Made by a program: the position numbers and the translations under genes
The notes under the pieces: generated by a model
What the model was told of the DNA's origin: nothing
Databases searched by the model: none
The model's input: the letters and a program-made list of their open reading frames with translations, nothing else
Source: an uncultured Omnitrophica bacterium
Lineage (GTDB): Bacteria; Omnitrophota; Gorgyraeia; JACQQV01
Direction: 5' to 3'
NCBI GenBank assembly: GCA_947085655.1
Contig: CAMTXH010000013.1
Span: 23,513-87,512 of the forward strand
Length of the DNA stretch: 64,000 nt
Part shown: positions 4,471 to 45,532 of the stretch, piece by piece
Numbering within the stretch: the stretch's first letter is position 1
Layout: every line of letters starts with the position of its first letter

Positions 4471-5718
4471 ATGATCGAGTTTATTGAGCACCTTGGAGAA
4501 AAGATAGACGCCTCATGGGGAAAGAAGGGGTACGCCCTGGAGGCCTTTTCGCAGATTGCTTTTCAAACCCTTCAGCAGGCCGGACTGCATAGGGTATTTA
4601 CGGTCGAAAAACTTCTGGATTCCCTCTGGACGAAGAAGGACCTTCCCAAACAGCTTTCCCTATTTAACGGATTCGGACAGCCCCCCATTACGCTCTATCG
4701 CAATCAGCAACACAACTTTCTGATCGATCTTTATTTCTGGATTCAGCCCGAAATCTCCATCCACTCACACGGGTTTCGGGGCGCGTTTACAGTCCTGGAG
4801 GGTAGGAGCTTCCAGTGCCGGTACGATTTTTCCATCCGTGATAACCTCGAAAATACCATTTTATTCGGTGACCTGACGCTTCGGGATACGACACTCCTTC
4901 ATCCGGGGGATGTTCAGGAGATTTTGGCCGGACCGTCCTATATTCATCAGGTCTGGCATCTCAGTTTTCCGACCCTCTCGCTGGCGGTCCGTACCCTTGA
5001 ACCACAACAGACCCAGTACGTCTATTTGAGGCCCCATATGGCCTTCTTGGCCCGTTCGAACGCGATGTCTTTGACAGAAGAGAATACAGCCTATTTCCCT
5101 CTTCCAAGTAAAAAGATCGATACCCTCGTCTGTTTGAACGCGACCCGGTATCCGCTAGAGGGCCGCAGCCCCCGCGCATGGCTGAAAGCGTTGATTGCAG
5201 AAACCCCTCCCCACGAAGGGTTTCTTCATCTCATAAAGTATTATGACCTCACCCGCGATATCGAGGCGATTCAGGATGTTCTAAACAGTGCCCCATCACT
5301 CGGAAAGTGGGCTCCGGAATTTCTCGCCACCTTGAGCCGGATGCATGGGGTGCAGATCAAGTGGACCCAGATCCGGGAGGAGGGGGAGCGGTTTCTCCTG
5401 GCGCTTCTTTTCTCCCTTGAAGAACAAAGTGATATCATGCGGTTGGTTCGGGCCTACAACCCTGCGGAAGCACCCGAGGCCCTCATCGTCAAGTGGTTGG
5501 CCGGTCTGATGCACCGTCGGGATGTGAATATTCAGATGAATCATACCGCGCTCACAGTCCTGGAACGGTTCCTTTACGGCGATTCCGAGGAGGAAGTTTG
5601 CAGACATCTTTCCCGGATCTACAAGGGGACGGATCCGCAAATCTTAAAGGAAGATGTCCGACAGATCCGGGATCGACTCCGTTCCGACGGACTGCTGAAG
5701 GCATTACAAAAAGGTTGA
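4471..5718 (+). CDS. Hypothetical protein with an N-terminal cupin-like domain
   Basis: The ORF-track ORF (4294) overlaps the ferritin-like gene; the first in-frame ATG after that gene's stop is at 4471 (MIEFIEHLGEK). It carries a cupin-like H-x-H...E motif (IHSHGFRGAFTVLEG) and a second His-containing motif (IHQVWH). Confidence 0.5.
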   Translation: MIEFIEHLGEKIDASWGKKGYALEAFSQIAFQTLQQAGLHRVFTVEKLLDSLWTKKDLPKQLSLFNGFGQPPITLYRNQQHNFLIDLYFWIQPEISIHSHGFRGAFTVLEGRSFQCRYDFSIRDNLENTILFGDLTLRDTTLLHPGDVQEILAGPSYIHQVWHLSFPTLSLAVRTLEPQQTQYVYLRPHMAFLARSNAMSLTEENTAYFPLPSKKIDTLVCLNATRYPLEGRSPRAWLKALIAETPPHEGFLHLIKYYDLTRDIEAIQDVLNSAPSLGKWAPEFLATLSRMHGVQIKWTQIREEGERFLLALLFSLEEQSDIMRLVRAYNPAEAPEALIVKWLAGLMHRRDVNIQMNHTALTVLERFLYGDSEEEVCRHLSRIYKGTDPQILKEDVRQIRDRLRSDGLLKALQKG

Positions 5719-5816
5719 GCGAATACCCATCAGGAATTATTCAAAAATCTTTCGTTCCGGCCCTTATTTTGTTCGGTTCCGCCTTGGGTATGGCGCTGAC
5801 GTTTGCGGGGGAAGGC

Positions 5817-6350
5817 ATGAAGAAAGAGGATCTCGGAAAAGCGACTTTTGCCGGCGGATGCTTCTGGTGTATGCAGCCGCCGTATGATGAACTGGAGGGC
5901 GTCGTTTCCACGACGGTCGGCTATACCGGGGGAGCCAAGAAAAATCCGACCTATGAGGAGGTCTCTTCCGGCACCACCGGGCATGCGGAGGCGGTGGAAA
6001 TCACCTACGACCCCTCAAAGATTTCCTACGAGGCGTTATTGGAGGCCTTCTGGAAAAATATCGACCCCACCACCCAGAACCGGCAGTTCGCCGACATCGG
6101 GACGCAGTACCGGACCGCCATCTTTTATCATGATGAAGAACAGAAGCGGCTCGCGCTCGCCTCAAAGGAAGGATTGGAGAAGTCCGGAAAATTCAAAGGC
6201 CCCATTGTCACCGAAATCGTTCCCGCCTCCGTCTTTTACCCTGCCGAGGACTATCACCAGGATTACTACAAGAAATGTCCCGTCCCCTACAACCTTTATA
6301 AAGTCGGTTCGGGAAGAGCGCAGTTTTTGAAAAAACAGTGGGGGAAATGA
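5817..6350 (+). CDS. msrA: Peptide-methionine (S)-S-oxide reductase MsrA
   Basis: GCFWC active-site motif. The protein is near-collinear with short MsrA proteins of the MSEKKEIATFAGGCFWC type, including TGHAEAV, QF-DIG, YR-AIFY and DYHQ-YY motifs. The ORF-track start (5493) overlaps the upstream gene; ATG at 5817 (MKKEDLGKATFAGGCFWC) is preferred, with ATG at 5790 as an alternative. Confidence 0.9.
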   Translation: MKKEDLGKATFAGGCFWCMQPPYDELEGVVSTTVGYTGGAKKNPTYEEVSSGTTGHAEAVEITYDPSKISYEALLEAFWKNIDPTTQNRQFADIGTQYRTAIFYHDEEQKRLALASKEGLEKSGKFKGPIVTEIVPASVFYPAEDYHQDYYKKCPVPYNLYKVGSGRAQFLKKQWGK

Positions 6351-6658
6351 TGTCTGTCGAGAAATGGGAGCCGAAGAAGGACGGGCCATTTTCGGAAAAG
6401 GCCCTTCGCCGGAAACTGGAATCCCGCGGATATCAAGTTTATCAGTATACGTATCCGCCGGGAACCGTTTTTCCGAATCATACGCATGGGATCGACAAAA
6501 TCGATGGGGTGGTCTCCGGCCGCTTCCGGATGAAGATGAAGGGACTGGATGTCATCCTGGAGGCGGGGGATTGTCTGGCGGTGCCGCGCGGTACGGTCCA
6601 TTACGCAGAAGTGGTGGGGGATGAACCGGTCGTCAGTCTGGATGCGACCCGGGAATGA
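6338..6658 (+). CDS. Cupin-domain protein (cupin_2)
   Basis: PGTVFPNHTHGIDKIDGVVSG...GDCLAVPRGTVHYAE cupin motifs. Its start is coupled to the msrA stop (ATGGGGGAAATGATG; alternative ATG at 6347). Confidence 0.65.
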   Translation: MGEMMSVEKWEPKKDGPFSEKALRRKLESRGYQVYQYTYPPGTVFPNHTHGIDKIDGVVSGRFRMKMKGLDVILEAGDCLAVPRGTVHYAEVVGDEPVVSLDATRE

Positions 6659-7545
6659 GCCGGGCTACGCTCATTTATAATCCGGTTGCCGGAGATCCGC
6701 AAGGCAATCTTCTCCAAAAGGTCCGGCATGTTCTTGAAGAAGAGGGAATCTCCCATCTCTTTAAACCGACCCGTGAAGCGCGGGAGGGAACCCGGCTTGC
6801 CAAAGAGGCGGCTCAAGAGGGAAGTGACCTTGTGATTGCCGCCGGCGGGGACGGCACAGTGAATGAAGTGGTGAACGGTCTCGTCGGGACCGAGGCGATA
6901 CTCGGCATCATTCCGATGGGAACCGGGAACCTTGCCGCTTATGAATTCGGCGTTCCCCTTGATCCGTTGGAGGCGGCTCGCGCCATTCCGAAAAGCCGGG
7001 TTGAACGGATTGACGTCGGAAAGGCGAACGACCGTTATTTTTTGATGATGACAAGTGTCGGTCTGGACGCCAAAGCCCTTCGGGATGCCCCCCGCTGGGG
7101 ATACAGGGCGCTTCACTGGTGGGCTTTTTTTTGGACCGGGTTTCTCAATCTTTTTGTGACAAGGCCGTTTCCCCTCCGGCTTCAGACCGCACAGAGGGAG
7201 ATGGCCTATACGACCCGCCTTCTGGTTGTTTCCAACATTAAAGGATACGGCCTTCCGGGATGCGAATTTCTTTCGAATGCGGATACCGCCGACGGATTTT
7301 TGGATGTCGGTTTTTTCAAATCGGAGAATCTTTGGTGTTACCTTCGGGGACTTTCCGCTCTCGGGCGGCGCAGGCCGATATCGCCGCATCTCGTCCAGCG
7401 AGGCCGGGTGGAAAAAGTCCGGATTGCGGCGGATATCCCGGTCCCGGCACAAGTCGACGGCGATTTCTACGGCTACACACCGCTTGAGGTTTCTGTGGTT
7501 CCAAAGGCCCTTTCCATTTTAATTCCCCAGAAAGATGTTCCGTAA
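6655..7545 (+). CDS. Diacylglycerol-kinase-family lipid kinase (YegS/BmrU-like, DAGK_cat)
   Basis: [10 protein letters not shown]...[19 protein letters not shown]...[11 protein letters not shown] motif set. Confidence 0.8.
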
Positions 7546-8275
7546 GATTGTCGTCCTGACCGGCGCCGGGATTTCGGCCGAATCCGGCATCAAAACATTC
7601 CGGGATGCCGGAGGGCTTTGGGAGAATTACCGGATTGAAGATGTGGCGACCCCCGAAGGATACGCGCGGAATCCGGAACTTGTCCTCAATTTTTATAATG
7701 AAAGGCGGAGACATCTTCTCGGGGGAACGATCCGGCCGAATCCGGGGCATTTGGCGCTTGCAGAACTTGAGAAAAATTTCCCGGGGGGATTTCTCCTTGT
7801 CACCCAGAACGTGGATAACCTTCACGAACAGGCCGGAAGCCGGAATGTTCTACATATGCACGGGGAGCTTCTAAAAGTCCGGTGTGCCCGGTCAGGGAAG
7901 GTATTTCCGGCGGAGGAAGACGTTCACACGGAGGATCGTTGTCCCTGCTGCAACCTGGCCGGCGCCTTGAGGCCCCATGTCGTCTGGTTCGGGGAGATCC
8001 CGCTTGAGATGAACCGGATTTTCGAAGCCCTGAGCCGTTGTGACCTTTTCATCTCGGTTGGCACCTCAGGCGTTGTCTATCCGGCGGCCGGGTTTGTGCA
8101 GGTGGCGCGGGAGGCAGGGGCGCATACGGTGGAATTGAATCTTGAACCCTCCGCAGTTCAGTCCCTTTTTGCCGAAAAAATCTACGGTCCGGCGAGCCGA
8201 GCGGTCCCGGAATACGTTCAGAAATTTTTTGCCAACAAGCACCACGTCGCAGACGAGACCTCCGAAAAGGCGTAA
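7535..8275 (+). CDS. cobB: NAD-dependent protein deacylase (sirtuin, Sir2/CobB family)
   Basis: [26 protein letters not shown], Zn ribbon C-x2-C...C-x-C (CARSG...CPCC), and [12 protein letters not shown]. Confidence 0.85.
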
Positions 8276-8310
8276 ATTCCTCTTCGAGATGGCTTTGATG
8301 AAAGTCCCCC

Positions 8311-8339
8311 TTGCACTCATGATGACATCCTTGTATAAT
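8311..8339 (+). promoter_or_regulatory. Sigma70-type promoter, TTGCAC-17 nt-TATAAT, upstream of the yceI/DUF2282 operon
   Basis: Near-consensus hexamers with an exact 17-nt spacer, about 70 nt upstream of the yceI-like ATG at 8411. Confidence 0.5.
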
Positions 8340-8410
8340 ATCATTCCGTCCTGAAACCTTTGGGTTTTTCCCGCATCTATACCAGCAGAACAAGAAGGGC
8401 GGTGTTTCTC

Positions 8411-8998
8411 ATGCGTCGTGTTGGCTGGATGTCTGCTTTGCTCCTATTGTACTTATTGGTTTCTCCCCTTTGGGCGGCCACCTATAAAGTGGATCCCCAC
8501 CATACGACCGTCGGTTTCAAAATCCGCCATCTTTTTTCATGGGTGCACGGCACGTTTAACGAATTTGAGGGAACCATTGAATATGAACCGGCAAAACCGG
8601 AAAGTTGGTCCGCCTCGGGCACCATTCAGGCGGCCAGTATTGATACGCGGGTTGCCCCGCGGGATAAACACCTTCGCTCCGGTGATTTCTTCGATGTGGA
8701 GAAGTATCCGACGATTGACTTCCGGACAACCCGGATCGATGATGTCGGCGCCAACAAGGCCAAGCTGCACGGCTTTCTCACGATTCACGGTGTTGAAAAA
8801 GAGGTGGAGTTGGATGTGGAAGTCCTCGGAATTGCCAACGATCCATGGGGAAACACCGTGGCGGGATTTTCCGCCACGACCACCTTTGACCGTCGGGACT
8901 TTGGATTGACATGGAATGAGACGTTGGAGACCGGAAGTGTCCTCGTAGGGAACGAGGTTCAGATCACCCTCGACATCTCCGCGCTCCTTCAAAAGTAA
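8411..8998 (+). CDS. YceI-family periplasmic (polyisoprenoid-binding-like) protein
   Basis: Signal peptide MRRVGWMSALLLLYLLVSPLWAATYKV, then YceI motifs (HTTVGFKIRHL, HGTFNEFEGTIEY, YPTIDFRTT). The ORF-track start at 8360 has no RBS; ATG at 8411 is preceded by GAAGGG. Confidence 0.8.
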   Translation: MRRVGWMSALLLLYLLVSPLWAATYKVDPHHTTVGFKIRHLFSWVHGTFNEFEGTIEYEPAKPESWSASGTIQAASIDTRVAPRDKHLRSGDFFDVEKYPTIDFRTTRIDDVGANKAKLHGFLTIHGVEKEVELDVEVLGIANDPWGNTVAGFSATTTFDRRDFGLTWNETLETGSVLVGNEVQITLDISALLQK

Positions 8999-9008
8999 GA
9001 TAAAGGAG

Positions 9009-9311
9009 GTGAACATGGCGTCGGTGAAACCAAAACGGAACAAAAGACAAACGCTGGTGGCCGCGTCTGTCGCGGGCCTTCTCGCTTTGGCGGCTGTCCC
9101 CGGCATGGTGCAGGGGCATCTGGAAGCGGCCGAGGAAGGGAAGACGAAGTGTTACGGCGTCAACAAGTGTAAGGGCACCGGTGACTGCGGTGGAAAGGGT
9201 CATTCCTGTGCAGGACTGAATGCCTGTCAGGGGCAGGCGTGGATTTATCTTCAGGAAAAGGACTGCCTTCGGATCCAGGGCGGGCGCTTGACTCCCGAAG
9301 AAGAAGGATAA
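9009..9311 (+). CDS. DUF2282-family secreted Cys-rich small protein (bufferin BufA-like RiPP precursor candidate)
   Basis: Sec signal peptide (LVAASVAGLLALAAVPGMVQG), then KCYGVNKCKGTGDCGG-HSCAG-NACQGQAW...DC, matching the conserved Cys-containing DUF2282 core as I recall it. An AAGGAGG RBS lies 7 nt upstream. Its stop codon overlaps the downstream ATG (TAATG). Confidence 0.7.
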   Translation: MNMASVKPKRNKRQTLVAASVAGLLALAAVPGMVQGHLEAAEEGKTKCYGVNKCKGTGDCGGKGHSCAGLNACQGQAWIYLQEKDCLRIQGGRLTPEEEG

Positions 9312-11002
9312 TGTGGCCTCTTCTCGGGTGCGGGGTCGGTCTTCGGACGGATCATTATGACCTGATTACCCGCGAATGGCCCGGGATGGACTGGTTTGAG
9401 GCTGTCTCCGAGAATTTTATTGATTCTGGGGGACGGCCTCTTTCTGTTTTGGAGAAGGTCCGGGCCCGTTATCCGGTGGCCCTCCACGGCGTCTCTCTTT
9501 CCATCGGTTCGGCCGATCCGCTGGATGAAACATATCTCAAAAAATTAAAAACGCTTGCGGATCGGATCGAACCGGTCTTGGTAACGGACCACCTTTGTTG
9601 GAACGGTGTAGCGGGGGAGTGCCTGCACGATCTTCTGCCCCTTCCATTTACGGAAGAGGCGATCCGGCATGTGGTACGGCGGGTCCAAAAGGTCCAGGGG
9701 TTTCTTGGCCGGCGGATTCTCCTTGAAAATATCTCCACTTACATTACGTACAAACATTCGGAGATGCCGGAATGGGTTTTTCTTTCGGAAATTGCCCGCC
9801 GTTCCGGATGCGGCATCCTTCTTGATTTGAACAACCTCTATGTCAATTCCGTCAATCACCGTTTCGAGCCGGAGGAAACCCTCCGGAATATTCCGGGAGA
9901 ATTCGTCGGACAGTTCCATCTGGCCGGGCATACCGACAAGGGAAAATACCTTTTTGATACCCATAATAGCCGTGTGATCGAGCCGGTCTGGGAGTTGTAC
10001 CGGAAGGCCCTTTGTCAGTGGGGGGCGGTGGCTACCCTGATTGAATGGGACGAGGCGATCCCCGATTTTCCAGGTCTTTCGGAGGAGTCGAAAAAAGCGC
10101 GGGCGATTTATGAGGAAGTGACGAAAGGCAAAAAAGATGCTTTAGAAGCAGCTCCTTCCCAAAAACCGGTCATCCGCCCCCGGCCGCCGGAGGGGCCAGA
10201 TCTTGCAACGCTTCAGTGTTGGATGAAATCCCAGATTCGGCCGAGCGGCGGTGGGAAAGAAACTTTTTCCGAATCTCCCCTGAATCCGCAGGGGGGAGAC
10301 CCGGGAATAGTCCGGATGGAGGTGTACGCATCCGGGTATCTGGCGAGGATGAAAGAAGCGCTTGAAGAGGTTTATGAGGCGGTGCACCACCTGACGGGCG
10401 AGGGGGTCTTTTCACGCCTTGCAACCGACTACGCGAAACAATTTCCCTCCCGGCATTACAATTTAAGCGCGGCCGGGGTCCATTTCAGCCGTTTTTTGGA
10501 GATGGCGGAAATCACCGAAAAGCTTCCCTTTCTGCCGGATCTTGTACGGCTTGAGTGGAAGGTGAATCAGGCCTTTCACGCTTTTGAAAAACCGCCCCTC
10601 TCACCGGAGATCTTTCAATCCGTTCCGGAGGAAAAGTGGGATGACTTGGTTTTTGAGTTTCAACCCTCCGTCGGCATCGTCTCCTCCGGGTGGCCTATTC
10701 TGGACCTTTGGCAGGCGCGGAAAACTCCTCGCAAGGAAATCGATATCCAGGTCGTGGACCGCCCCCAGACAGTGCTTATTTTCCGGAAGGGTTTTCAGGT
10801 CCGGTGCGAAAATCTTGAAAGAGGAGAGGCCGCGCTTCTTGAGGGGCTTCTTGCCGGCCGAAGCCTCGGCGATGTCTGCGGTTCGCTTGCCGACTTTTCA
10901 AAAGATCTGTTGCCCGATCTCACCGGAACTTTCCGCAATTGGATGCAAAAAGGCCTTCTGATATGTTACAATGCAGGTAGGATTGGGCACGATGCAAAAT
11001 AG
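9311..11002 (+). CDS. Fused DUF692 (MbnB/BufB-like TIM-barrel di-iron enzyme) and DUF2063 (MbnC/BufC-like) protein
   Basis: The N-terminal ~280 aa show DUF692 hallmarks (GVGLRTDHY, FEAVSENF, HGVSLSIGS, VTDHLCW, LLPLPFTEE, ILLENISTY, GCGILLDLNNLYVNS, FHLAGH). After a Pro-rich linker the C-terminal ~250 aa are DUF2063-like. It is one uninterrupted ORF. The ORF-track start (9239) overlaps bufA; ATG at 9311 (MWPLLGCGVGLRTDHY) is preferred. Confidence 0.75.
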   Translation: MWPLLGCGVGLRTDHYDLITREWPGMDWFEAVSENFIDSGGRPLSVLEKVRARYPVALHGVSLSIGSADPLDETYLKKLKTLADRIEPVLVTDHLCWNGVAGECLHDLLPLPFTEEAIRHVVRRVQKVQGFLGRRILLENISTYITYKHSEMPEWVFLSEIARRSGCGILLDLNNLYVNSVNHRFEPEETLRNIPGEFVGQFHLAGHTDKGKYLFDTHNSRVIEPVWELYRKALCQWGAVATLIEWDEAIPDFPGLSEESKKARAIYEEVTKGKKDALEAAPSQKPVIRPRPPEGPDLATLQCWMKSQIRPSGGGKETFSESPLNPQGGDPGIVRMEVYASGYLARMKEALEEVYEAVHHLTGEGVFSRLATDYAKQFPSRHYNLSAAGVHFSRFLEMAEITEKLPFLPDLVRLEWKVNQAFHAFEKPPLSPEIFQSVPEEKWDDLVFEFQPSVGIVSSGWPILDLWQARKTPRKEIDIQVVDRPQTVLIFRKGFQVRCENLERGEAALLEGLLAGRSLGDVCGSLADFSKDLLPDLTGTFRNWMQKGLLICYNAGRIGHDAK

Positions 11003-12464
11003 AGAATCACTGCAAGCCATTATCAGAGAAAGAGTCAGCAACGAGCTCTTTGTCGTTGTTTCAAACCGCGAACCCTATATCCATCAATTTAAAGGGGAGG
11101 AGATTGTCTGTCAGGAGGCGACCAGCGGACTGATCACCGCACTCGACCCGGTGATGCAGGCCTCAAGCGGTATCTGGATCGCGCACGGAAGCGGGGATGC
11201 GGATCAAAAGGTGGTCGATCAAAAAAATCATGTCCGGGTGCCGCCAGAAAACCCCTCTTACACCCTTCGCCGTGTCTGGCTCACCAAAGAAGAGGAGGAC
11301 GGCTACTATTACGGCTTTTCGAATGAAGCCCTCTGGCCCCTTTGCCATGTGGCCTATACCCGTCCGGTTTTTAACGATGCGGATTGGAAAACGTACTGTG
11401 CCGTCAATCAGAAATTTGCGGATGCGATTCTTGAAGAAGTGGGAAGCCGGAAGGCCTTTGTCTTTATCCAGGATTATCACTTCACGCAACTGGCGCGACT
11501 CCTCAAGCGGCCGAATATCCGGACCGCGCATTTCTGGCACATCCCCTGGCCGAATCCCGAGGTTTTCCGGATTTGCCCCTGGGCGACCGAAATCCTCGAC
11601 GGGCTTTTAGGAAACGACCTCCTCGGTTTCCACACGCGGCTTCACTGCCAAAATTTTCTGGACAATGTCTGGACGATGCTCAAGGCAAAGGTAGATTATG
11701 AGCGGTTTGAGATCAGCCGGGATGGAGCCACCACATCGGTCCGTCCCTTCCCGATCAGCATCGATTTTGAAGCGACCTCCGAGGACGCCCGGAGCGCCGA
11801 GGTGGAAACGGAGATGGAAAACCTCCGGAAAAAATACGGGCTTCGGAATATGTTGATCGGGCTCGGGGTGGACCGGGTTGACTATACGAAAGGGATTCCG
11901 GACCAATTCCGGGCGCTGGACCGGTTTCTGGAGCGGTATCCGGAGTATCAGGGGCGGGTGATGATGGTGGAAATCGGCGTTTCCAGCCGGGCGCGAATCC
12001 CGACGTATCAGAGAGTGAACGACGAAATCGACCAGATTGTGGAAGAGGTCAACTGGAAATATCAGAAGGGGGGATGGAAGCCGATTCTCTATCTGAAGGA
12101 AAGGGCTCCGGCGACAACACTGCACGCCTGGTACCGGCTGGCAAACTTCTGCGTGGTCAGTTCCCTGCACGATGGAATGAATCTGGTGGCCAAGGAGTAC
12201 GTTGCTTCCCGCAATCAGGAGGACGGCGTTCTTCTCCTCAGCCGCTTTACGGGGAGCGCCCGCGAACTGACCGACGCCATTTTGATTAATCCCTATGCCA
12301 TCGACCATATGGCGGAGGCCTACCGCGAAGCCCTGACCATGCCGCTGAAGGAGCAAAAAAATCGGATGCGGCAACTCCGCGCGCATGTGCAGGATCACAA
12401 TATCTACCGGTGGGCCGCTCAGGTCCTCTCATCCCTCTTTCAGTTTGAATTTGCGGAGAAATGA
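10992..12464 (+). CDS. otsA: Alpha,alpha-trehalose-phosphate synthase (GT20)
   Basis: GT20 motifs (VVSNREPY, GGL..AL, WIAHGSG, GFSNEALWPLCH, FIQDYHF, FFLHIPWP, HDGMNLVAKEY). An ATG at 10992 overlaps the bufBC stop (ATGCAAAATAG), indicating translational coupling; the ORF-track start is 10971. Confidence 0.85.
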   Translation: MQNRESLQAIIRERVSNELFVVVSNREPYIHQFKGEEIVCQEATSGLITALDPVMQASSGIWIAHGSGDADQKVVDQKNHVRVPPENPSYTLRRVWLTKEEEDGYYYGFSNEALWPLCHVAYTRPVFNDADWKTYCAVNQKFADAILEEVGSRKAFVFIQDYHFTQLARLLKRPNIRTAHFWHIPWPNPEVFRICPWATEILDGLLGNDLLGFHTRLHCQNFLDNVWTMLKAKVDYERFEISRDGATTSVRPFPISIDFEATSEDARSAEVETEMENLRKKYGLRNMLIGLGVDRVDYTKGIPDQFRALDRFLERYPEYQGRVMMVEIGVSSRARIPTYQRVNDEIDQIVEEVNWKYQKGGWKPILYLKERAPATTLHAWYRLANFCVVSSLHDGMNLVAKEYVASRNQEDGVLLLSRFTGSARELTDAILINPYAIDHMAEAYREALTMPLKEQKNRMRQLRAHVQDHNIYRWAAQVLSSLFQFEFAEK

Positions 12465-12467
12465 TTT

Positions 12468-13265
12468 TTGAAGCATCCCCCGAAATTTTTCCTTTTCGCC
12501 GATTATGACGGAACCCTCACCCCGATTGTCTCCCACGCCAAAAAAGCGCGCCTTTCCAAAAAATTACGGCGCCTTTTAAAAAAACTTTCCCGAAAGCCGG
12601 GATGCATCCTCGGGATTGTGAGCGGCCGCGCGCTCCCGGAACTGAAGCGCTTCGTCGGAGTCCCCGGCCTTGTCTATATCGGAAACCACGGATTTGAACT
12701 TGAGTCCAGCCGGTTTTCCTTCGTTCATCCTTCCGCACGCCGCGCACGCCCCCTCATGGAACGGATTGCCGATACCTTGGAGGAGTCTCTCAAAGAGTTC
12801 CGGGGGGCATGGGTGGAGCGGAAGGGATGGACGGTGAGCGTTCACTGGCGGGGCGTTTCTCCGCGGAAGCAAAGCCGTTGCCGGCGCCGGATTCTGGTCG
12901 CTGTGGCCTCCGCCCGCAGAGCGCACAAAATCCGTCTGACGCATGGGAAATGCGTCACAGAAATCCGTCCACCGGTCCTTTGGAATAAAGGGACGATGAT
13001 TGAATGGGCGGTGAAACGGCTTGCGGGAAGAAACAGGCGTTTTGGGTCATGTTATCTGGGGGATGACCGGACGGATGAAGATGCGTTCCGGGTCGTCAAT
13101 CGTCTCGGGGGGATTTCCATTTTTGTTGGAAAAGACAAGAAACATTCCCGGGCGTGTTATTCTTTGAAGAATCCCAACGACGTCCAAGTGTTTTTTAAGC
13201 ATCTTCTCGATGATTTACCCGTCGCCGAGGCCGTTTGTCAAGGCGGCGGCGTTCTGTTACCATAG
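12468..13265 (+). CDS. otsB: Trehalose-6-phosphate phosphatase (HAD-IIB)
   Basis: FLFADYDGTLTPIV (DxDGT HAD motif I); later motifs S/T and K-x(n)-GDD (YLGDDRTDEDAF); only a 3-nt gap after otsA. Confidence 0.8.
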   Translation: MKHPPKFFLFADYDGTLTPIVSHAKKARLSKKLRRLLKKLSRKPGCILGIVSGRALPELKRFVGVPGLVYIGNHGFELESSRFSFVHPSARRARPLMERIADTLEESLKEFRGAWVERKGWTVSVHWRGVSPRKQSRCRRRILVAVASARRAHKIRLTHGKCVTEIRPPVLWNKGTMIEWAVKRLAGRNRRFGSCYLGDDRTDEDAFRVVNRLGGISIFVGKDKKHSRACYSLKNPNDVQVFFKHLLDDLPVAEAVCQGGGVLLP

Positions 13266-13289
13266 AAGAAGCGGACGAGGAAGGAGCCT

Positions 13290-13691
13290 ATGACAGCGAA
13301 GGAAAGATTGCTGAATGTGGGGCTATTGTGGCTTCGGGTGCTGGTGGGACTCGGAATCGCATCCCACGGCTACCAGAAAATTTTCGGCGGGCAGTTGAGT
13401 TTGTTAATCAACAGCGTGACGGAAATGGGGTTTCCCCAGCCGGTCCTCCTTGGCTGGGCAGCGGCTCTCTCGGAATTTGCCGGAGGGATTCTGATCGTGC
13501 TCGGGCTTGGCACCCGTGTCGCCGCCTGCTTTGTCTTTGCCACGATGAGCGTTGCCGCATTTATCGCGCATGCTTCGGATCCTTTCCAAGTAAAGGAGTT
13601 GGCTCTCGCCTATTGGACGATGGCCGGCTTTTTGATTTTAAGCGGAGGAGGCATATTTTCGTTGGATGCGAAGTGCTTCCGGGAGGGATAA
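13290..13691 (+). CDS. DoxX-family membrane protein
   Basis: Four TM segments, WLRVLVGLGIASHGYQKIFGG, and an overall DoxX pattern. Confidence 0.8.
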   Translation: MTAKERLLNVGLLWLRVLVGLGIASHGYQKIFGGQLSLLINSVTEMGFPQPVLLGWAAALSEFAGGILIVLGLGTRVAACFVFATMSVAAFIAHASDPFQVKELALAYWTMAGFLILSGGGIFSLDAKCFREG

Positions 13692-13850
13692 ATGGTCGGC
13701 GTGATCATGGGGATCGTCGTATTGACGATGGTGGTCTTGGCTTTTACACTGGATCCGCAGGTCAAGCGCTGCGAACATTGCGAGGGTCCGGTCACGCTGA
13801 AGGAATTCTGGTCGCATTTTAAGAGGTGTTCTGAAACCAAAAAGAAATGA
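13692..13850 (+). CDS. Unannotated 52-aa micro-ORF: single TM helix plus C-x2-C...C cluster (MVGVIMGIVVLTMVVLAFTLDPQVKRCEHCEGPVTLKEFWSHFKRCSETKKK)
   Basis: An ATG sits immediately after the DoxX stop, and the ORF's TGA overlaps the sigma-factor ATG (ATGA), so it would be coupled on both sides. It is below the 60-aa cut-off of the ORF track. Confidence 0.4.
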   Translation: MVGVIMGIVVLTMVVLAFTLDPQVKRCEHCEGPVTLKEFWSHFKRCSETKKK

Positions 13851-14470
13851 ACCGCATCTCAACAGGAGACCAAGCACTGATTCGCCGGCTGAAAGTGCGT
13901 GACGAAACGGCGGTGGGGGAGCTCATGACCCAGTATCACGCGAAGGTGATGGGCCTCGCCCTCCGGCTCACCGGCAATCGTCAGGACGCGGAAGAAGTGC
14001 TCCAGGACGTTTTTTGGACGGTGGTTCAAAAAATCGGGGGCTTCCGGGAAGAGTCGAGTCTTTCCACTTGGATTTACAGGATTGCCACGAATGTCGCATT
14101 GATGAAACTCCGCAAACGCCCCAAAATCGAGGAACTTCCCCTTGACGAAGAACTCGGCCCCAAGATAACCGGAGAAGGGATGATTGCCGAGACGGTGACG
14201 GATTGGTCCAATCTTCCGGATGGTGCCGCATCCCGCAAGGAATGGATGCAGCATCTGGAGGAGGCGGTCCGGAGACTCCCTCCGGAATACCGGACTGTTT
14301 TTGTCCTTCGGGATGTGGAAGGACTCTCTGCCGAAGAAGCATGCAAGATCCTGAATCTTTCTATTCCGGCCCTGAAAAGCCGGCTGCACCGGGCGCGGCT
14401 TTTCCTTCGAAAGGAGATGGCGGATGTGGCGGAGACCCGGCCGATCGGAATGAGGTCACCCCATGCTTAA
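13847..14470 (+). CDS. ECF-type RNA polymerase sigma-70 factor
   Basis: Sigma70 region 2 (VLQDVFWTVVQKIGGFREESSLSTWIYRIATNVALMKLRKR) and region 4 (YRTVFVLRDVEGLSAEEACKILNLSIPALKSRLHRAR). Confidence 0.85.
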   Translation: MNRISTGDQALIRRLKVRDETAVGELMTQYHAKVMGLALRLTGNRQDAEEVLQDVFWTVVQKIGGFREESSLSTWIYRIATNVALMKLRKRPKIEELPLDEELGPKITGEGMIAETVTDWSNLPDGAASRKEWMQHLEEAVRRLPPEYRTVFVLRDVEGLSAEEACKILNLSIPALKSRLHRARLFLRKEMADVAETRPIGMRSPHA

Positions 14471-14750
14471 ATGCAGGGACATCAACGGATTGCTTCATGA
14501 TTATGCGGAAGGGCTCTTGGAGCTCTCCGTTCACAAAGAGCTGGACCGGCATCTTTCGGATTGCCCCGGCTGTCTCGCTTTTGTGAAGACCTATAAAGAA
14601 ACCATCCGCCTTTCGAAAGACCTTCGCACCGGGGAGATGCCTCCCGAACTTCAAGAGAAGCTCGAGAGTTTCCTCAAAGCCAAACTCGCTGAAAAACCCA
14701 AAACCCTCTGGGACCGGCTCCGCTCCCGCTTCGGCCGGGGCTGTTGTTAG
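14463..14750 (+). CDS. Anti-sigma factor, zf-HC2 type (soluble, ChrR/RsrA-like)
   Basis: H-x3-C-x2-C motif (HLSDCPGC); its start overlaps the sigma stop (ATGCTTAA). Confidence 0.7.
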   Translation: MLKCRDINGLLHDYAEGLLELSVHKELDRHLSDCPGCLAFVKTYKETIRLSKDLRTGEMPPELQEKLESFLKAKLAEKPKTLWDRLRSRFGRGCC

Positions 14751-14790
14751 AGTTTCCCTTGAGCCGGGGCCGTAAACGGCCTATAATGGA

Positions 14791-15876
14791 ATGGAGATGA
14801 ATAAAGAACTTTTTCAGGAATTTCTTGCAAAAGAAGTCTTCGGAAACACCGCTCAGGCCTACCTGGTCTCGCTCTGTGTCTTTTTCGGTTTCCTGGTGGG
14901 ACTCCGGATCTTCAAGGTGATGGTGATTCACCGGCTCCGCCAATATGCCAAGACCACGACCAGCGATATTGACGATTTCCTCGTCCAACTTCTTGACCAG
15001 ATCAGTCCCCTTGTCTATTTTTTCCTGCCGCTTTACGTAGCAACCCGCTCCCTGACTCTGAATCAGAGTCTTGCAGGCATTCTCCATACCGCTTTTGTGA
15101 TTGTCCTCACCGTCAAAGCCATTCATGTCCTCCAGGCGGTCTCCACCTTTTTCCTGAACCGGTGGGCTTCTAAAACCGAGGAAGACGACCTGACCAATGC
15201 GATGGTGGTCCGGAATGTGAGCAAGGTGCTGAACATCGTCCTTTGGGTCGTCGGCATTATCTTCATCTTGGACAACGTCGGTGTGAATATCGCCTCGATC
15301 GTTGCGGGCCTTGGGGTCGGCGGGATCGCGGTGGCGCTTGCCGCCCAGTCCATCCTGGGGGATGCCTTCAGCGGGTTTCTGATTTTTGTGGACAAGCCCT
15401 TCAAGGCGGGGGATTTTATCATCGTCGGGGATCTTCTCGGGACAGTGGAGCATATCGGTTTCAAGACGACCCGGATCCGGAGTCTTCACGGAGAGCAGCT
15501 GATTTTCTCCAATACCGATTTGACCTCCAGCCGGATCCGAAACTACAAGCGGATGGAGACCCGCCGGATCCTCTTCAAAATCGGGGTGATCTACCAGACG
15601 CCGCTCGAAAAACTTAAGACAATCCCAAAAATGATTGAAAACATTGTCCAGGAAAACAAACTGGCCAAGTTCGACCGGGCCCATTTCCAGAGTTACGGCG
15701 ATTTCGCCCTGATTTACGAAATCGTCTATTACGTGCTGACGGCGGACTACAATCAATACATGGATGTCCAGCATTTCATCAATGTCCGGATCAAGGAGGA
15801 GTTCGAAAAGGCGGGAATCGAATTTGCCTACCCGACCCAACAACTTTTTGTCACCCAGGTGGGATCGCCTCAGTGA
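14791..15876 (+). CDS. Small-conductance mechanosensitive channel (MscS family)
   Basis: TM region followed by the MscS beta-domain (AGDFIIVGDLLGTVEHIGFKTTRIRSLHGEQLIFSNTDL). Confidence 0.85.
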   Translation: MEMNKELFQEFLAKEVFGNTAQAYLVSLCVFFGFLVGLRIFKVMVIHRLRQYAKTTTSDIDDFLVQLLDQISPLVYFFLPLYVATRSLTLNQSLAGILHTAFVIVLTVKAIHVLQAVSTFFLNRWASKTEEDDLTNAMVVRNVSKVLNIVLWVVGIIFILDNVGVNIASIVAGLGVGGIAVALAAQSILGDAFSGFLIFVDKPFKAGDFIIVGDLLGTVEHIGFKTTRIRSLHGEQLIFSNTDLTSSRIRNYKRMETRRILFKIGVIYQTPLEKLKTIPKMIENIVQENKLAKFDRAHFQSYGDFALIYEIVYYVLTADYNQYMDVQHFINVRIKEEFEKAGIEFAYPTQQLFVTQVGSPQ

Positions 15877-41038: not shown

Positions 41039-44000
41039 TTACTCAGGACCGGGGAATTCGTCCTTAGGCCGACGCGGCTTGGTTCCAAATCGGGCCGGGA
41101 TCCGCTGAGTGACCCATGTTCCGTCATAGTCTCTGACAGTCACACGGATTTCATCTGCATAGGTCTCATCTACAGGTTGGAGGGGTTCGTATCGAAACGT
41201 CCATTTAGCTTGGCTGATTCCGGGTCCATAATAAGGCGCTCCCATCGGGATAATGGTTGCTCCTGACATGGTTCGATAACTGATATAGTTGGTATGATTC
41301 TGATACCGGAAATTATTGTCAAGGTCATTTGCTTTAATGACAAAGGTGTACCCTGTAACCCCTGGCTGAACATAGATTCCCCTGGTACTTCCTCCAAGGT
41401 CAGGGACGTAATTGGCATGATGGACCCATACGTTCCGGCTTAATGTCGATATCCCCCCATCAGGGTGCATCGCCTCAAAGGTAATTGTATAGGGCCCCTG
41501 CGGGCTAGGATTGGGAGGTGGAGGGATTGGAGGATTTGCGGCAGGATCAATCGGCGCCGCTGCAATCCCTGGATCCGGGTTCCAGAGTAAACTAACGGAG
41601 GGGTTGGTGGGATCAAGAGCCACCCAATCCCATATACTGACACCCCCTCTACTCCACAAGGCATCTGGCGTTAAGGGAGCCGTGGTGGTGGAAGCGACTC
41701 GCACCCGAACTGTCTCAGAGACTGCAGGATTCCGAGCGATCGGAAAGGTTGCAGTAATATCTTCTGTAACATCAAAGGGGGAAGGAGTATTGTTGGTAAT
41801 GAGTTTGACATCATTCACATAAATGGAAATGCCGACCATACTCACACTGTGTCCATCTGAAATATTTACCGAGAGATTAAATCTTCTGGGAGCGGCTCCA
41901 TCCGCCACGATACTGTAAGTTGGTTGCCAAGTGAACTCTGCCGTAGCAGGCCGGGCTGTCCCCGAGCCGGTGCTTCTAAACTGGGCTCCAAGGGTGGGAT
42001 GAGGAGTGCCGTCGGAAGGAAGGAGGTCTCCGTCTAAATAAACCCAGAAGGAGAGATTGTCGACACATTCTGGTGCCGATCCACTATTGGGCTCATTTCC
42101 CTCAAACCGAAGGATAAAGCTTTCTCCTTCGTTCCTTGTTGTGGAGCCGGAGACAAACCTCACTCTCGGATAATGGGGCTCACATCCTGCGAGGGCTGTC
42201 CGTGTCGGATTTCCGCGGAACATCGGCCAAGATGCCTCGCCAGAAAGATTTTGAGGCAACTCACCGATCTTTAAAGATCCTTCTTTTCCGATAAAGACGA
42301 ACTCATCTTTTGGATCAGCGTCGATATTCCCCCAGAAATAGCCTTTTGCAGCAGGGAGATGCCCTCCCAAAATCAGGGAAGAAAGATTATCGTTATTGAG
42401 TAGTCGTAAGCCAAACGAGGAAACCTTGATAGGGTCGTAACGGGCATAGGGATGATAGAGTCGTGAAGGTGCAACAAAACCGATGGGGCCGATTGGGGTT
42501 GCAATGGGAGAAAAATCTTCTCCAAAAAACCTCTCCATCTCAATTGTGGGTGGTTGGAAATAGGTATCAAACTTCTCAATAAAACTGCTGTATCGTGTCC
42601 TGCTCCAGTTGTAGCTATCCGGACCGTTTGAGGCAGTTTCATAGCATTTAAGATACCAGCCCCAATGGGGGTACTCGAAATCGCAAGGACTCGCGGGACA
42701 GAAACCGGTGAGCCAATCCCAAAAACCGCAATCTCTCTCGCAACCGGTCCATACCCCTTCGTATGCCATGAGGAGTACCGACATCCTTCCGTCTGAATTT
42801 CTCATGAGGATCGGAGAACCATAATAGACTTCATAAATATAGTTGCTATTCCCATAGGTTACCGAATGTTCAATTTCTCCTGCATTGCCTCGGTGTGTCA
42901 AAATATAAAGGATTGAGGAACCAGCTCGGCTACCGTCGAAGCCTGAGGGGACAGCCACTACCACTTCAAGTGTTCCATCGTTGTCAATGTCCCCAATGAC
43001 CGGTGCGGCATCAACTTTTGCATAGGGATTTGTATATGAAACTAACCAATCATTTGGATTAGGTGGATTATAACTATAAGAAATCCCCGGGAAGGGGCCC
43101 CACCCGGGGAGGGGTTGACTATTCCATTGAAGCGCAAAGAGGCCTTGGTCAGTGGCCGCAACTACTTCCCTCGTCCCATCTCCGTTCAAATCGGCCACGG
43201 CGGGGCTCGAGATGGCTTTAACCGGCTGGGCTGTATGAAAATCTACAGGCCCCCAACCAGAGACAAAGGTTCCATCCGCACGGAAGGCATAGAGTTGATC
43301 GCCGACAGACACGATGACTTCCGGACGCTCTTCGGCATCATAATCGATATCAGAAATGACAGGGGCTCGATAATATTCCCATCCCCAATATTGATGCGGT
43401 ATCCTTTGTGGCCAACCTGGAAGAACGTCGTCTGTCCCAAGGGTGAGTGCATACAATAAAGTGTTTGGCTCGCGGCCCGCTTGCACGACAATTTCTTTTA
43501 CTCCATCTCCATTCAAATCCCCTGCGGCTGGAATTCCAACCGGATCTCCTAAAAATTTCCATTCTTTTAAAAGGACTCCATTCTGTTGCCACGCTTCGAT
43601 ACCGGGAACCGGGCTTTTAATAGAGAGTACAATCTCCTGGTTTCCATCGTTATCCAGATCGACGAGTAAAGGATTGTGCTTATGGAGTTCCCCATGTTGC
43701 GCGACCCATCCCGGCTGCGCCCCGATGAATATTTTTGCGATGTCTACTTTTATCTGGGGTTGACCTTGGACCGTAAGCCTTATTGTAAATTCTCCCCACG
43801 GAGGAAGGCCATCCGCTGGCCATCCCATTGTGCTTCTGCTTAAAATTCCCAATAAAGGTGTTGCCGAGGGAGTTGTAGAATGGACAATGGTCTGCCAGGG
43901 AATCGCTTCATCTTCCCATCCCCGACGGTACTCCAATGTATATCCTTGAAAGTTTCCACCCAAAGCCATGCCAAATATCGGAATTCCCGCCTCAATTTCA

Positions 44001-45532
44001 TCAACCGAAAACAAGCCCTTTTTAAAGGAAGATAAGAACGTTGCCATAATTGGGCTATTGCGCAAATCGCTTGGACCGCTAACAGTCGCAGTAAAAGTAG
44101 AGAAGAATGTCGCCTCATTTCCGGCTACATCGACCGCCTTGACTGTGATTACCCATTCGCCCGAAGGGATGTTAAATTGGTAATAAGGATTCCCAATAAG
44201 CCCTGAGTTTAATATCGTGATGTTATCTTCGCTGGTGAAAGGACTCCCTGCGAAGTCGAATGTCCATCTGTAGTGAAGGATATATTTTTCGACCTCTGTT
44301 TCTGCATCGTCGGCTTGTGGCCACCTGAGAGTGAAAGAGCCGGATGTAACATCTCCAATCGTTTCAAAAGTCCCTAGGCGGAATGTGGGGGGATTTCTAT
44401 CTGTTACAATATGGATTTGCCCAGGATAGATGAGAACATCGTTACTGCTATCTGTGTCACGAGGTTCGATGACTCTTTGAAGGAGGTAGTAAGTCCCCTC
44501 TGGAACATCCTGTGTTTCAATTACCAATTCATGCGTTCTTGTCTCATTTGAACCCACAATTGGGAAAGGAATATTGGTTCTGCCCACAAACTCGTCAGAG
44601 AGATCCCACAGCTCGTCTTCAGAAAGGTAGAATTGCACTTCGGGATTAGCGATGTCAAAAAGGGGACCTTGGTTGTCGACACTGAATCTAAAACGGGATC
44701 GTCTGCCCTGAGGAAGACGTCTGTCATCAGGGGGTAGGCCTTCGATAGTTGGTATGATCCCGAGCGATCTGGAATCACCCTCTGGATCCGCATACTCATA
44801 ATTCGTCATCGAGAAGTCCCACTGGGGGAGATTATTGGGATCATCGGAAGGATACATCATCAACATGGCCTCGGCGTCATCCCCGTAAGTCCGCTCAGGA
44901 TTTCCAGCGTGCAACCCTCTAACGGACATAATGGAAAGGATTGGATCTCCAAAGGTTCCTTGATCGGAATGGCTGAGCCCAAGGGTATGGCCGATTTCAT
45001 GAATTGCGACGTGCCGAAAAGAAGCTACTCCATAGAAATTGGGCCATTCCTCAAATCCCGGGTAAATATTTGATGGATGTGGGTCGTAGAATTCTATGAA
45101 CCAATGTTTCCTCGTATTAAAATAAAGAAAGGCATAATCGATAAATCCATTGTTATCACCATCAATAGAAGGTGAGTACCCCGCGGCATCAGGATTAAAA
45201 CCCCGCTCCTCAAAATCAGCGAAGCCAACGACGATATCCCCGTCACGAGCTTGGTAGTTACAATTTTCGATGGTAAATCCAAACGTGAAGAAGGTGGGGG
45301 GAGGAGCATACCAACGTGATCCCTTGACTGCCCACTGAGGAATCGACTCTGTAAAGGCATTGATAAACTCATTGCGCGTTGGGTTTCCGGAAGGCCAACC
45401 GCAATCCACTATCCGGAAATTAGGTATAACTCCCTCAGGCCAAGGGATGTCCTCCTCGAAGGCCTCTCCTTTGGAGACTCCCAAAAGAAACACCAAGCAT
45501 GCAGTTAAGATGACTCGCTTTGCCATGGTCAC
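41039..45532 (-). CDS. Giant secreted zinc metalloprotease (metzincin, matrixin/M10-like HEIGHTLGLSHS) with FG-GAP beta-propeller repeats and Ig/Fn3-like beta domains
   Basis: Signal peptide MTMAKRVILTACLVFLLGVSKGEA. The motif HExxHxxGxxH+S is followed by a Met-turn (SIM). At least four DxDxDG FG-GAP repeats are present (DLDNDGNQEIV, GDLNGDGVKEIV, ADLNGDGTREVV, GDIDNDGTLEVV). It is 1497 aa, and the gene's GC looks lower than in neighbouring genes. Confidence 0.8.
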   Translation of the reverse strand: MTMAKRVILTACLVFLLGVSKGEAFEEDIPWPEGVIPNFRIVDCGWPSGNPTRNEFINAFTESIPQWAVKGSRWYAPPPTFFTFGFTIENCNYQARDGDIVVGFADFEERGFNPDAAGYSPSIDGDNNGFIDYAFLYFNTRKHWFIEFYDPHPSNIYPGFEEWPNFYGVASFRHVAIHEIGHTLGLSHSDQGTFGDPILSIMSVRGLHAGNPERTYGDDAEAMLMMYPSDDPNNLPQWDFSMTNYEYADPEGDSRSLGIIPTIEGLPPDDRRLPQGRRSRFRFSVDNQGPLFDIANPEVQFYLSEDELWDLSDEFVGRTNIPFPIVGSNETRTHELVIETQDVPEGTYYLLQRVIEPRDTDSSNDVLIYPGQIHIVTDRNPPTFRLGTFETIGDVTSGSFTLRWPQADDAETEVEKYILHYRWTFDFAGSPFTSEDNITILNSGLIGNPYYQFNIPSGEWVITVKAVDVAGNEATFFSTFTATVSGPSDLRNSPIMATFLSSFKKGLFSVDEIEAGIPIFGMALGGNFQGYTLEYRRGWEDEAIPWQTIVHSTTPSATPLLGILSRSTMGWPADGLPPWGEFTIRLTVQGQPQIKVDIAKIFIGAQPGWVAQHGELHKHNPLLVDLDNDGNQEIVLSIKSPVPGIEAWQQNGVLLKEWKFLGDPVGIPAAGDLNGDGVKEIVVQAGREPNTLLYALTLGTDDVLPGWPQRIPHQYWGWEYYRAPVISDIDYDAEERPEVIVSVGDQLYAFRADGTFVSGWGPVDFHTAQPVKAISSPAVADLNGDGTREVVAATDQGLFALQWNSQPLPGWGPFPGISYSYNPPNPNDWLVSYTNPYAKVDAAPVIGDIDNDGTLEVVVAVPSGFDGSRAGSSILYILTHRGNAGEIEHSVTYGNSNYIYEVYYGSPILMRNSDGRMSVLLMAYEGVWTGCERDCGFWDWLTGFCPASPCDFEYPHWGWYLKCYETASNGPDSYNWSRTRYSSFIEKFDTYFQPPTIEMERFFGEDFSPIATPIGPIGFVAPSRLYHPYARYDPIKVSSFGLRLLNNDNLSSLILGGHLPAAKGYFWGNIDADPKDEFVFIGKEGSLKIGELPQNLSGEASWPMFRGNPTRTALAGCEPHYPRVRFVSGSTTRNEGESFILRFEGNEPNSGSAPECVDNLSFWVYLDGDLLPSDGTPHPTLGAQFRSTGSGTARPATAEFTWQPTYSIVADGAAPRRFNLSVNISDGHSVSMVGISIYVNDVKLITNNTPSPFDVTEDITATFPIARNPAVSETVRVRVASTTTAPLTPDALWSRGGVSIWDWVALDPTNPSVSLLWNPDPGIAAAPIDPAANPPIPPPPNPSPQGPYTITFEAMHPDGGISTLSRNVWVHHANYVPDLGGSTRGIYVQPGVTGYTFVIKANDLDNNFRYQNHTNYISYRTMSGATIIPMGAPYYGPGISQAKWTFRYEPLQPVDETYADEIRVTVRDYDGTWVTQRIPARFGTKPRRPKDEFPGPE

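Follow-up and report, generated by a model that had tools for sequence, protein, structure and literature searches.

The 64-kb window analysed here (a stretch of 64,000 nt of contig CAMTXH010000013.1 from an uncultured bacterium) contains a compact run of genes in which a predicted bufferin-type cluster, specifying a peptide that is made on ribosomes and modified after translation (a RiPP), is followed by trehalose synthesis genes and by an extracytoplasmic function (ECF) σ factor with its putative anti-σ. All genes from yceI to the anti-σ gene lie on the + strand, and their order at 8411-14750 was confirmed by Pfam and NCBIfam profile searches of the window proteins, by which gene families were assigned, and by the sequence itself. 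A sequence-only reading of the region 8311-14750 had proposed this gene content and order, and every one of its gene calls holds in Pfam and NCBIfam, with DUF2282, DUF692, DUF2063, DoxX, GT20 and Trehalose_PPase all assigned. The genes of the run and the channel gene that follows it are:

8411-8998, + strand: yceI, YceI-family periplasmic protein with a signal peptide (PF04264, 6e-50)
9015-9311, + strand: bufA, predicted bufferin precursor (PF10048/DUF2282, 30.3 bits, cut-off 22.4)
9311-11002, + strand: bufBC, predicted fused maturase made of an MNIO domain (BufB; PF05114, 7e-104) and a DUF2063 domain (BufC; PF09836, 3.5e-14)
10992-12464, + strand: otsA, probable trehalose-6-phosphate synthase OtsA (Pfam GT20, 1.5e-125)
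12468-13265, + strand: otsB, trehalose-6-phosphate phosphatase OtsB with a TTG start (Trehalose_PPase, 9.5e-48; TIGR00685, 172 bits, cut-off 68)
13290-13691, + strand: doxX, DoxX-family membrane protein (Pfam DoxX, 2e-19)
13692-13850, + strand: small membrane protein of 52 aa, one transmembrane helix followed by KRCEHCEGP...H..KRC
13847-14470, + strand: ECF σ factor (Sigma70_r2 and r4_2)
14463-14750, + strand: soluble 95-aa zinc-finger anti-σ of the zinc-associated anti-σ (ZAS) type (zf-HC2, 3e-6)
14797-15876, + strand: mscS, MscS-type mechanosensitive channel with three MS_channel Pfam domains (start at 14791 or 14797)

The yceI start was corrected to 8411 (the open reading frame (ORF) as listed begins at 8360), and the otsA start is placed at 10992 rather than 10971 because the OtsA homologues (60-71% identical) are 490-491 aa long and the alignment with the closest otsA locus, L016, runs from residue 1. 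The genes are packed tightly, with junctions, as read from the sequence, of -1 nt for bufA/bufBC (a TAATG overlap), -11 nt for bufBC/otsA, +3 nt for otsA/otsB, +24 nt for otsB/doxX, 0 nt for doxX and the 52-aa ORF, -4 nt for the 52-aa ORF and the σ gene (an ATGA overlap) and -8 nt for σ/anti-σ. The overlapping start and stop codons reported earlier are thus present, but they lose their weight as a sign of linkage, since the same overlaps join unrelated genes of the contig (msrA/cupin -1, cupin/DAGK -4, DAGK/sirtuin -11 and mscS/cstA -4). Such overlaps are the background style of this contig.

Judged by its profile matches, the first part of the run is a genuine bufferin-type RiPP cluster with a precursor, an MNIO maturase and a DUF2063 partner; the earlier claim to this effect is upheld by scores that pass the BufA2 and MNIO_BufB models and by the presence of a DUF2063 domain. 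The precursor scores 64.4 bits against NCBIfam BufA2 (NF050166, cut-off 60) and is built of a Sec signal peptide (recognized by eye from a basic N-terminus, a hydrophobic stretch and VQG followed by H) and a ~64-aa core with six Cys (C-YGVNK-C-KGTGD-C-GGKGHS-C-AGLNA-C-...-C). All six Cys are kept in 7/7 precursor orthologues read out, and of 10 orthologues scored, 8 exceed the cut-off of BufA2. Although the Pfam DUF2282 threshold is passed, the four-Cys pattern of Buf1 is not present in the core, and the precursor is classed from these features as a BufA2-type bufferin. The argument that DUF2282 and DoxX together form the hallmark of such a cluster does not carry over, since that combination belongs to Buf1 clusters whereas the precursor here is six-Cys and Buf2-type. 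Within the bufA coding region (window 9220-9240, 70 nt before the stop) lies a hairpin of 9 bp followed by GGATTTATCT, which could be either a by-product of Cys/Gly codons or a damper of read-through into the maturase gene.

The bufBC product of 563 aa reaches 359.3 bits against MNIO_BufB (NF050167, cut-off 310), and its DUF2063 domain 53.3 bits against 27.2, while the model for the whole partner, HvfC, gives 22 bits (cut-off 142). Fusion of MNIO and DUF2063 is common: both domains are found in at least 120 clusters of proteins about 550-600 aa long, joined by a linker that varies in length and sequence. We considered that the last 12 BufBC residues might represent read-through into a former otsA upstream region; this was ruled out, as the C-terminal tails of homologues are equally variable in length.

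To place the module in context, we inspected 12 related maturase loci among more than 2,000 fused-BufBC matches at E <= 1e-30. A YceI gene stands directly upstream of bufA in 8 of the 11 loci with enough upstream sequence (L007, L008, L011, L012, L013, L014, L103 and L104; 32-71% identity). No DoxX gene follows the maturase in any of the eight related loci with downstream sequence, as judged from gene calls or from tblastn and ORFs, and otsA occurs in none of the 12. The module conserved in these relatives is, from their gene content, YceI-BufA2-fused BufB/BufC. Two loci carry a gene for a secreted, thioredoxin-like DUF1223 protein in place of YceI (L005 9204-9989 and L006 5916-6710), and L005 has no precursor detected by similarity.

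By analogy with published Buf1 and Buf2 work, the fused MNIO/DUF2063 enzyme would act in the cytoplasm and make thiooxazoles of the precursor's four central Cys, the product would then be exported by means of its Sec signal peptide, a disulfide would form between the first and last Cys, and the small folded product would buffer periplasmic copper; we infer this mechanism for the cluster as a whole. For Buf2, shifts of -4 Da have been reported for the central Cys (PMC11626156). YceI, a periplasmic lipocalin-like protein, would be a conserved accessory of the module.

The nearest described system is the buf2 cluster of Caulobacter vibrioides (BUF_6/12Cys; bufA2-bufB2-bufC2), which has no DoxX gene (PMC11626156). 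The two are alike in a precursor with a Sec signal peptide and six conserved Cys, in an MNIO maturase with a DUF2063 partner, in a module that lacks DoxX, and in passing the BufA2 and MNIO_BufB models. The module here differs in that a single 563-aa protein holds both BufB and BufC, YceI is the conserved first gene, the precursor also passes DUF2282/BufA1, there is no SigF/NrsF pair, and the host is uncultured and probably Omnitrophota-related. Buf1/gig operons (DUF2282-DUF692-DUF2063-DoxX, often with an ECF σ and NrsF; PMC11626156, PMC12452194) share the enzyme family and its partner, an ECF σ factor in the vicinity and a DoxX gene nearby; in the window, by contrast, there are six Cys rather than four, otsAB separates DoxX from the maturase, and the anti-σ is a soluble HxxxCxxC protein instead of the membrane protein NrsF.

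The gene order had been put forward as undescribed, and this stands: it is not found in the bufferin literature (PMC11626156, PMC12452194) or in any other locus examined. Trehalose is absent from the main text of both papers, and the Pfam names of otsA and otsB from the supplements of PMC12452194. This 2025 survey names YceI one time only, where a supplementary legend describes a Legionella cluster, and YceI, GT20, Trehalose_PPase and zf-HC2 are missing from its table of domains co-occurring with MNIO genes at >=5%.

The trehalose genes have a conserved setting of their own. The best NCBIfam models of OtsA are OtsA types (489 and 441 bits, under their equivalog cut-offs of 634 and 565), and the glucosylglycerol-phosphate synthase model scores lower than these, at 309 bits. 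We probed 84 otsA loci (L016-L099; 80 from a metagenome scan with OtsA and four from look-ups; OtsA 51-71% identical) by tblastn with all window proteins. Homologues of otsB were found in 74 of the 84, nearly always directly downstream of otsA, and an MscS homologue adjoins otsAB in 20; BufBC, BufA and YceI were found in none. In none of the loci compared, the 12 maturase loci included, is otsAB embedded in a bufferin cluster. In L016, with identities of 71% for OtsA, 49% for OtsB, 67% for DoxX and 69% for MscS, the order is two alpha-amylase-family genes, otsA, otsB, a convergent CLC channel gene, DoxX, GreA, pirin, a hypothetical gene and MscS, and no bufferin genes are present in the contig stretch read. 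Thus otsA, otsB, DoxX and MscS follow one another in the same order in L016 and in the window, where alone among these otsAB operons a bufferin module abuts otsA and a σ/anti-σ pair lies between DoxX and MscS.

The window DoxX scores 55.6 bits against HvfX, the NCBIfam model for bufferin-type DoxX, under its cut-off of 80. Because of this score and the L016 order, DoxX is best assigned to the otsAB/MscS neighbourhood and does not appear to be a displaced BufD. The proposal that otsAB was inserted between the modification enzyme and DoxX is not supported, as the bufferin modules of relatives have no DoxX and the L016 counterpart sits beside otsAB/MscS. In the reading that we favour, otsA-otsB (with doxX ... 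mscS) would make trehalose as part of an osmotic-stress neighbourhood and would have no role in bufferin biosynthesis. Genes for MsrA (PMSR) and MscS recur near bufferin modules or otsAB in varying order, as in msrA-cupin-DAGK-sirtuin just upstream in the window (5790-8275), MscS-PMSR...PMSR-Usp-YceI-BufA-BufBC in L104 (1-3812) and otsAB...MscS-PMSR in L017 (13675-15125), which suggests a loose stress-gene neighbourhood in these lineages.

At the downstream end of the run, the earlier assignment of an ECF σ factor and a soluble zf-HC2 anti-σ agrees with the Sigma70_r2/r4_2 and zf-HC2 matches and with the lack of a visible membrane segment. The best specifically named NCBIfam models of the σ factor are SigW types, each under its cut-off, and homologues are abundant at 56-71% identity, all taxon-named ones coming from Ca. 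Omnitrophica. For the anti-σ, no hydrophobic segment was seen in the sequence and no NrsF match was obtained in Pfam or NCBIfam. In the three σ orthologue loci (L100, L101 and L102), the σ factor (65-68% identical) is always followed by a zf-HC2 protein of 93-94 aa (53% identical), in which C4, H30, C34 and C37 (HxxxCxxC) of the window anti-σ are invariant. Around this pair, which recurs in Omnitrophota-named MAGs, these loci hold MerR/MerT/CopZ, DsbD-thioredoxin and AhpC genes, and in no case genes for a bufferin or otsAB. From these neighbours we infer that the pair is a thiol or metal stress regulator, in which the ECF σ and the HxxxCxxC anti-σ would form a thiol or zinc redox switch. The pair resembles ZAS systems such as SigR-RsrA in its short soluble anti-σ with HxxxCxxC and an N-terminal Cys, and in that its orthologues adjoin thiol-redox and metal genes; it differs in falling short of the RsrA model (20.5 bits, cut-off 62.5). 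An ECF/ZAS switch paired with MNIO and DUF2063 has a parallel in Neisseria, where the sigma-E/MseR locus adjoins DUF692/DUF2063 genes.

For the 52-aa protein encoded just before the σ factor, a search of 1.84 billion representatives gave three small homologues (45-58 aa, 50-62% identity). The three share the helix and KRCE[YH]C-x-GP (C-x2-C), and two of them keep the later His and Cys. The protein has no family match in Pfam or NCBIfam, no homologue of the ORF was detected by tblastn in the other σ loci, and the ORF is called as a gene in only one of the four identical contigs described below. It is a real, if rare, gene. In L101, a 36-aa ORF (8112-8222; a membrane helix followed by C-SS-C-G-C) after the orthologous anti-σ gene has a similar build, without detectable sequence similarity to the 52-aa protein.

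Because each module recurs elsewhere in its own context without the others, we read the locus, with a probability of about 0.68, as three independently conserved stress modules juxtaposed in a lineage-specific manner in one poorly sampled lineage. These would be yceI-bufA2-bufB::C, otsA-otsB (with doxX ... mscS) and the ECF σ/anti-σ pair preceded by the small CxxC membrane protein.

How the region may be transcribed bears on this reading. A consensus promoter scan of the region returned 7 promoter-like sites, where chance alone would give 3.9. The sites of interest, some of them outside the scan list, are:

8311-8339, + strand: σ70-like promoter candidate TTGCAC-17-TATAAT, with a perfect -10 and a -35 matching at 3/6 positions, under the scan thresholds
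8352-8379, + strand: candidate promoter of the ECF type, TGAAAC-N16-CATCTA, 32 nt ahead of the yceI start
10964-10972, + strand: candidate extended -10 element TGTTACAAT, 20 nt before the otsA start and within the 3' end of bufBC
13235-13263, + strand: scan-listed TTGTCA-17-TACCAT with TG (extended -10 TGTTACCAT), 27 nt before doxX
13832-13859, + strand: second copy of the ECF-type motif, TGAAAC-N17-CATCT, spanning the σ start codon (13847)
14759-14787, + strand: TTGAGC-17-TATAAT before mscS, top scan site (10/12 positions), marking the unit's downstream edge

The 135-nt gap before yceI, which holds the 8311-8339 site, is the widest from msrA to mscS and is among the widest same-strand gaps in the 21.7-kb L001 (the widest few there measure 113-147 nt). 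This site had been described as a near-consensus promoter, an overstatement given that its -35 matches at only 3/6 positions and that the scan does not list it. For the ECF-type motif, TGAAAC-N16/17-CRTCT has 2 matches in the window against 0.09 expected, a figure that is suggestive only, as the pattern was picked after the sites had been seen. Similar motifs stand upstream of the bufferin modules of L103 (TGTAAG-N16-CGTCTA) and L104 (TGAATC-N17-CGTCTA), and the motif common to the window and these two loci, being derived from those same sites, serves as a lead. The motif at 8352-8379 also resembles the Bacillus SigW consensus, TGAAAC-N16-CGTA. The second copy at 13832-13859 was considered as an autoregulatory promoter of the σ gene and ruled out, since the conserved σ N-terminus (residue 1) would be truncated.

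ECF genes adjoin YceI/Buf2 modules in two of the related loci. In L103 the order is ECF, zf-HC2, BufA, YceI, BufA, BufBC, and in L011 an ECF gene overlaps the end of bufC; these σ factors are non-orthologous to that of the window, the L103 one being 31% identical to it. A regulatory tie between ECF sigmas and the bufferin module is plausible on this arrangement. L103 carries three + strand copies of TGTA(A/C)(G/C)-N16-CGTCTA in 15.7 kb (5198-5225, 5618-5645 and 13053-13080), one of them just upstream of the first bufA and directly after the ECF/zf-HC2 pair, and the motif is likely the promoter motif of L103's own ECF σ. The L011 cluster (8164-13205, from an Oligoflexales metagenome-assembled genome (MAG)) comprises YceI, BufA, a YHS-like protein (a sub-threshold match, 26.6 bits against a cut-off of 30.3), a second BufA and separate BufB and BufC, followed by the overlapping ECF σ, a thioredoxin and a CMD/AhpD-like gene. 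Here a σ gene accompanies a Buf2-type cluster, at odds with the published survey, in which σ and NrsF genes occur in Buf1 and not in Buf2 clusters (PMC12452194, section 14).

Further downstream, the promoter-like elements have counterparts in L016, namely TGgTAAAAT upstream of otsA, TTGGGC-17-TACACT with TG upstream of doxX and TTGAGT-17-TATAAT before mscS (L016 10845-10912). The L016 doxX must have its own promoter because it follows a convergent gene there. In the window, TGNTANNNT sites number only 35 on the + strand of the 64 kb, and only 4 of 24 gene starts checked have TGNTANNNT within 60 nt upstream. Only 3-9 nt separate the end of the -10 of the window mscS from its candidate ATGs, a spacing that suggests an mRNA with no leader or almost none. 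Likewise, in L100-L102 a -10-like element is set 6-7 nt ahead of the σ ATG; the window σ gene has no such element and must therefore be transcribed from further upstream. A scan found no convincing intrinsic terminator between 8400 and 14750. A terminator after the anti-σ gene was sought by folding 14690-14800 and rejected, since this segment folds no better than shuffled sequence does (z = -0.32) and lacks a U tract. Most likely, transcription would start at the tandem σ70-like and ECF-like promoters before yceI and may read through, and the extended -10 elements before otsA and doxX would probably also permit separate expression. Co-transcription from yceI to the anti-σ gene may occur.

Several points weigh against reading the modules as independent. 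Tight packing on one strand and the lack of a convincing terminator make read-through co-transcription quite possible, the promoters are sequence matches and not mapped start sites, and the ECF-type motif before yceI together with the ECF genes beside the modules in L011 and L103 suggests a regulatory link. In four of the relatives, moreover, the absence of DoxX is based on tblastn and ORF inspection only. The lineage also has no close relative: a scan of a genome collection for the maturase gave no close one (top match 56% identical), the best of the full-length BufBC matches has 58% identity, and the figure rises to 70% for a 466-aa fragment from a 2.6-kb contig (P0017). With no close relative, the missing of the gene order elsewhere means that it is not ancient, not that it is functionless.

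Under the proposal of a single transcription unit linking three processes, one operon from yceI to the anti-σ gene would be driven from a single promoter region, would couple the copper peptide, a compatible solute and a redox/zinc σ switch, and would have the σ factor feed back on the yceI promoter. Consistent with it are the shared strand with overlapping or near-abutting codons, the lack of a strong internal terminator, the σ70-like and TGAAAC-N16-CATCTA sites together in the 135-nt gap, a σ gene devoid of the -10 element of its L100-L102 orthologues, and the ECF genes adjoining bufferin modules in L011 and L103. Yet the gene order recurs in 0/84 otsA and 0/12 BufBC loci, every module keeps a conserved context of its own elsewhere, such codon overlaps also occur between plainly unrelated genes of the contig, extended -10 elements precede otsA and doxX as they do in L016, and the L103 ECF σ, at 31% identity, is a different regulator. 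We regard such an operon as possible but not indicated, and on balance unlikely. A fuller version of it, still more doubtful, would have the ECF σ act at TGAAAC-N16-CATCTA so that a thiol, zinc or copper signal, passed through the anti-σ and perhaps the CxxC membrane protein, induces the copper-buffering peptide and trehalose together, with YceI as a dedicated periplasmic Buf2 partner in place of the Buf1 DoxX.

It is considerably less probable that a canonical Buf1-style cluster was split by a recent otsAB insertion and that DoxX is still a bufferin-associated oxidoreductase (BufD). DoxX does co-occur with ~40% of MNIO genes overall (PMC12452194, Table S1), HvfX, the RiPP-associated DoxX, is the top NCBIfam match of the window protein, and the precursor passes the DUF2282 threshold; but the HvfX score stays below its cut-off, the precursor and its orthologues are BufA2-type with six Cys in keeping with published Buf2 clusters that have no DoxX, none of the eight related modules with downstream sequence has DoxX, and the 67% identical L016 DoxX comes after otsB in a stretch free of bufferin genes. 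That the adjacency is an assembly or binning chimera might be suspected because the source is a MAG, and we give it hardly any credence: the identical arrangement is present in four records from separate runs (the NCBI MAG, ERR4904390, ERR3478686 and ERR4904392, on contigs of 10-173 kb), GC content is even across the region, and the arrangement, assembled independently four times, is no assembly artefact. The reading of three juxtaposed modules is the one that we retain.

Elsewhere in the window, the first 39 kb carry ORFs of >=200 aa (not nested in a longer + strand ORF) almost exclusively on the + strand, and at 41039-45532 the - strand holds an ORF of 1497 aa. The 64-kb window yielded no tRNA genes, and an Rfam scan of the whole window for leader RNAs or riboswitches gave no match at gathering thresholds.

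What is new at this locus is, on the sequence comparisons above, a recurrent YceI/fused-maturase variant of Buf2, seen in several other MAGs besides the Omnitrophota-named ones, a promoter motif of the ECF type before yceI with possible ECF control of the module, and a rare conserved 52-aa membrane protein with CxxC. The locus also carries a caution, as dense packing on one strand of a compact genome gave three unrelated stress modules the look of one exotic biosynthetic cluster, and comparison with relatives separates them. ECF σ genes adjoin some Buf2-type modules (L011, L103 and the window), whereas the published survey found σ genes only in Buf1, and the ECF-type motif upstream of the module offers a testable regulatory hypothesis. 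Should YceI prove to act together with the bufferin, a pathway thought to need only a precursor, an enzyme and a partner would gain a periplasmic component.

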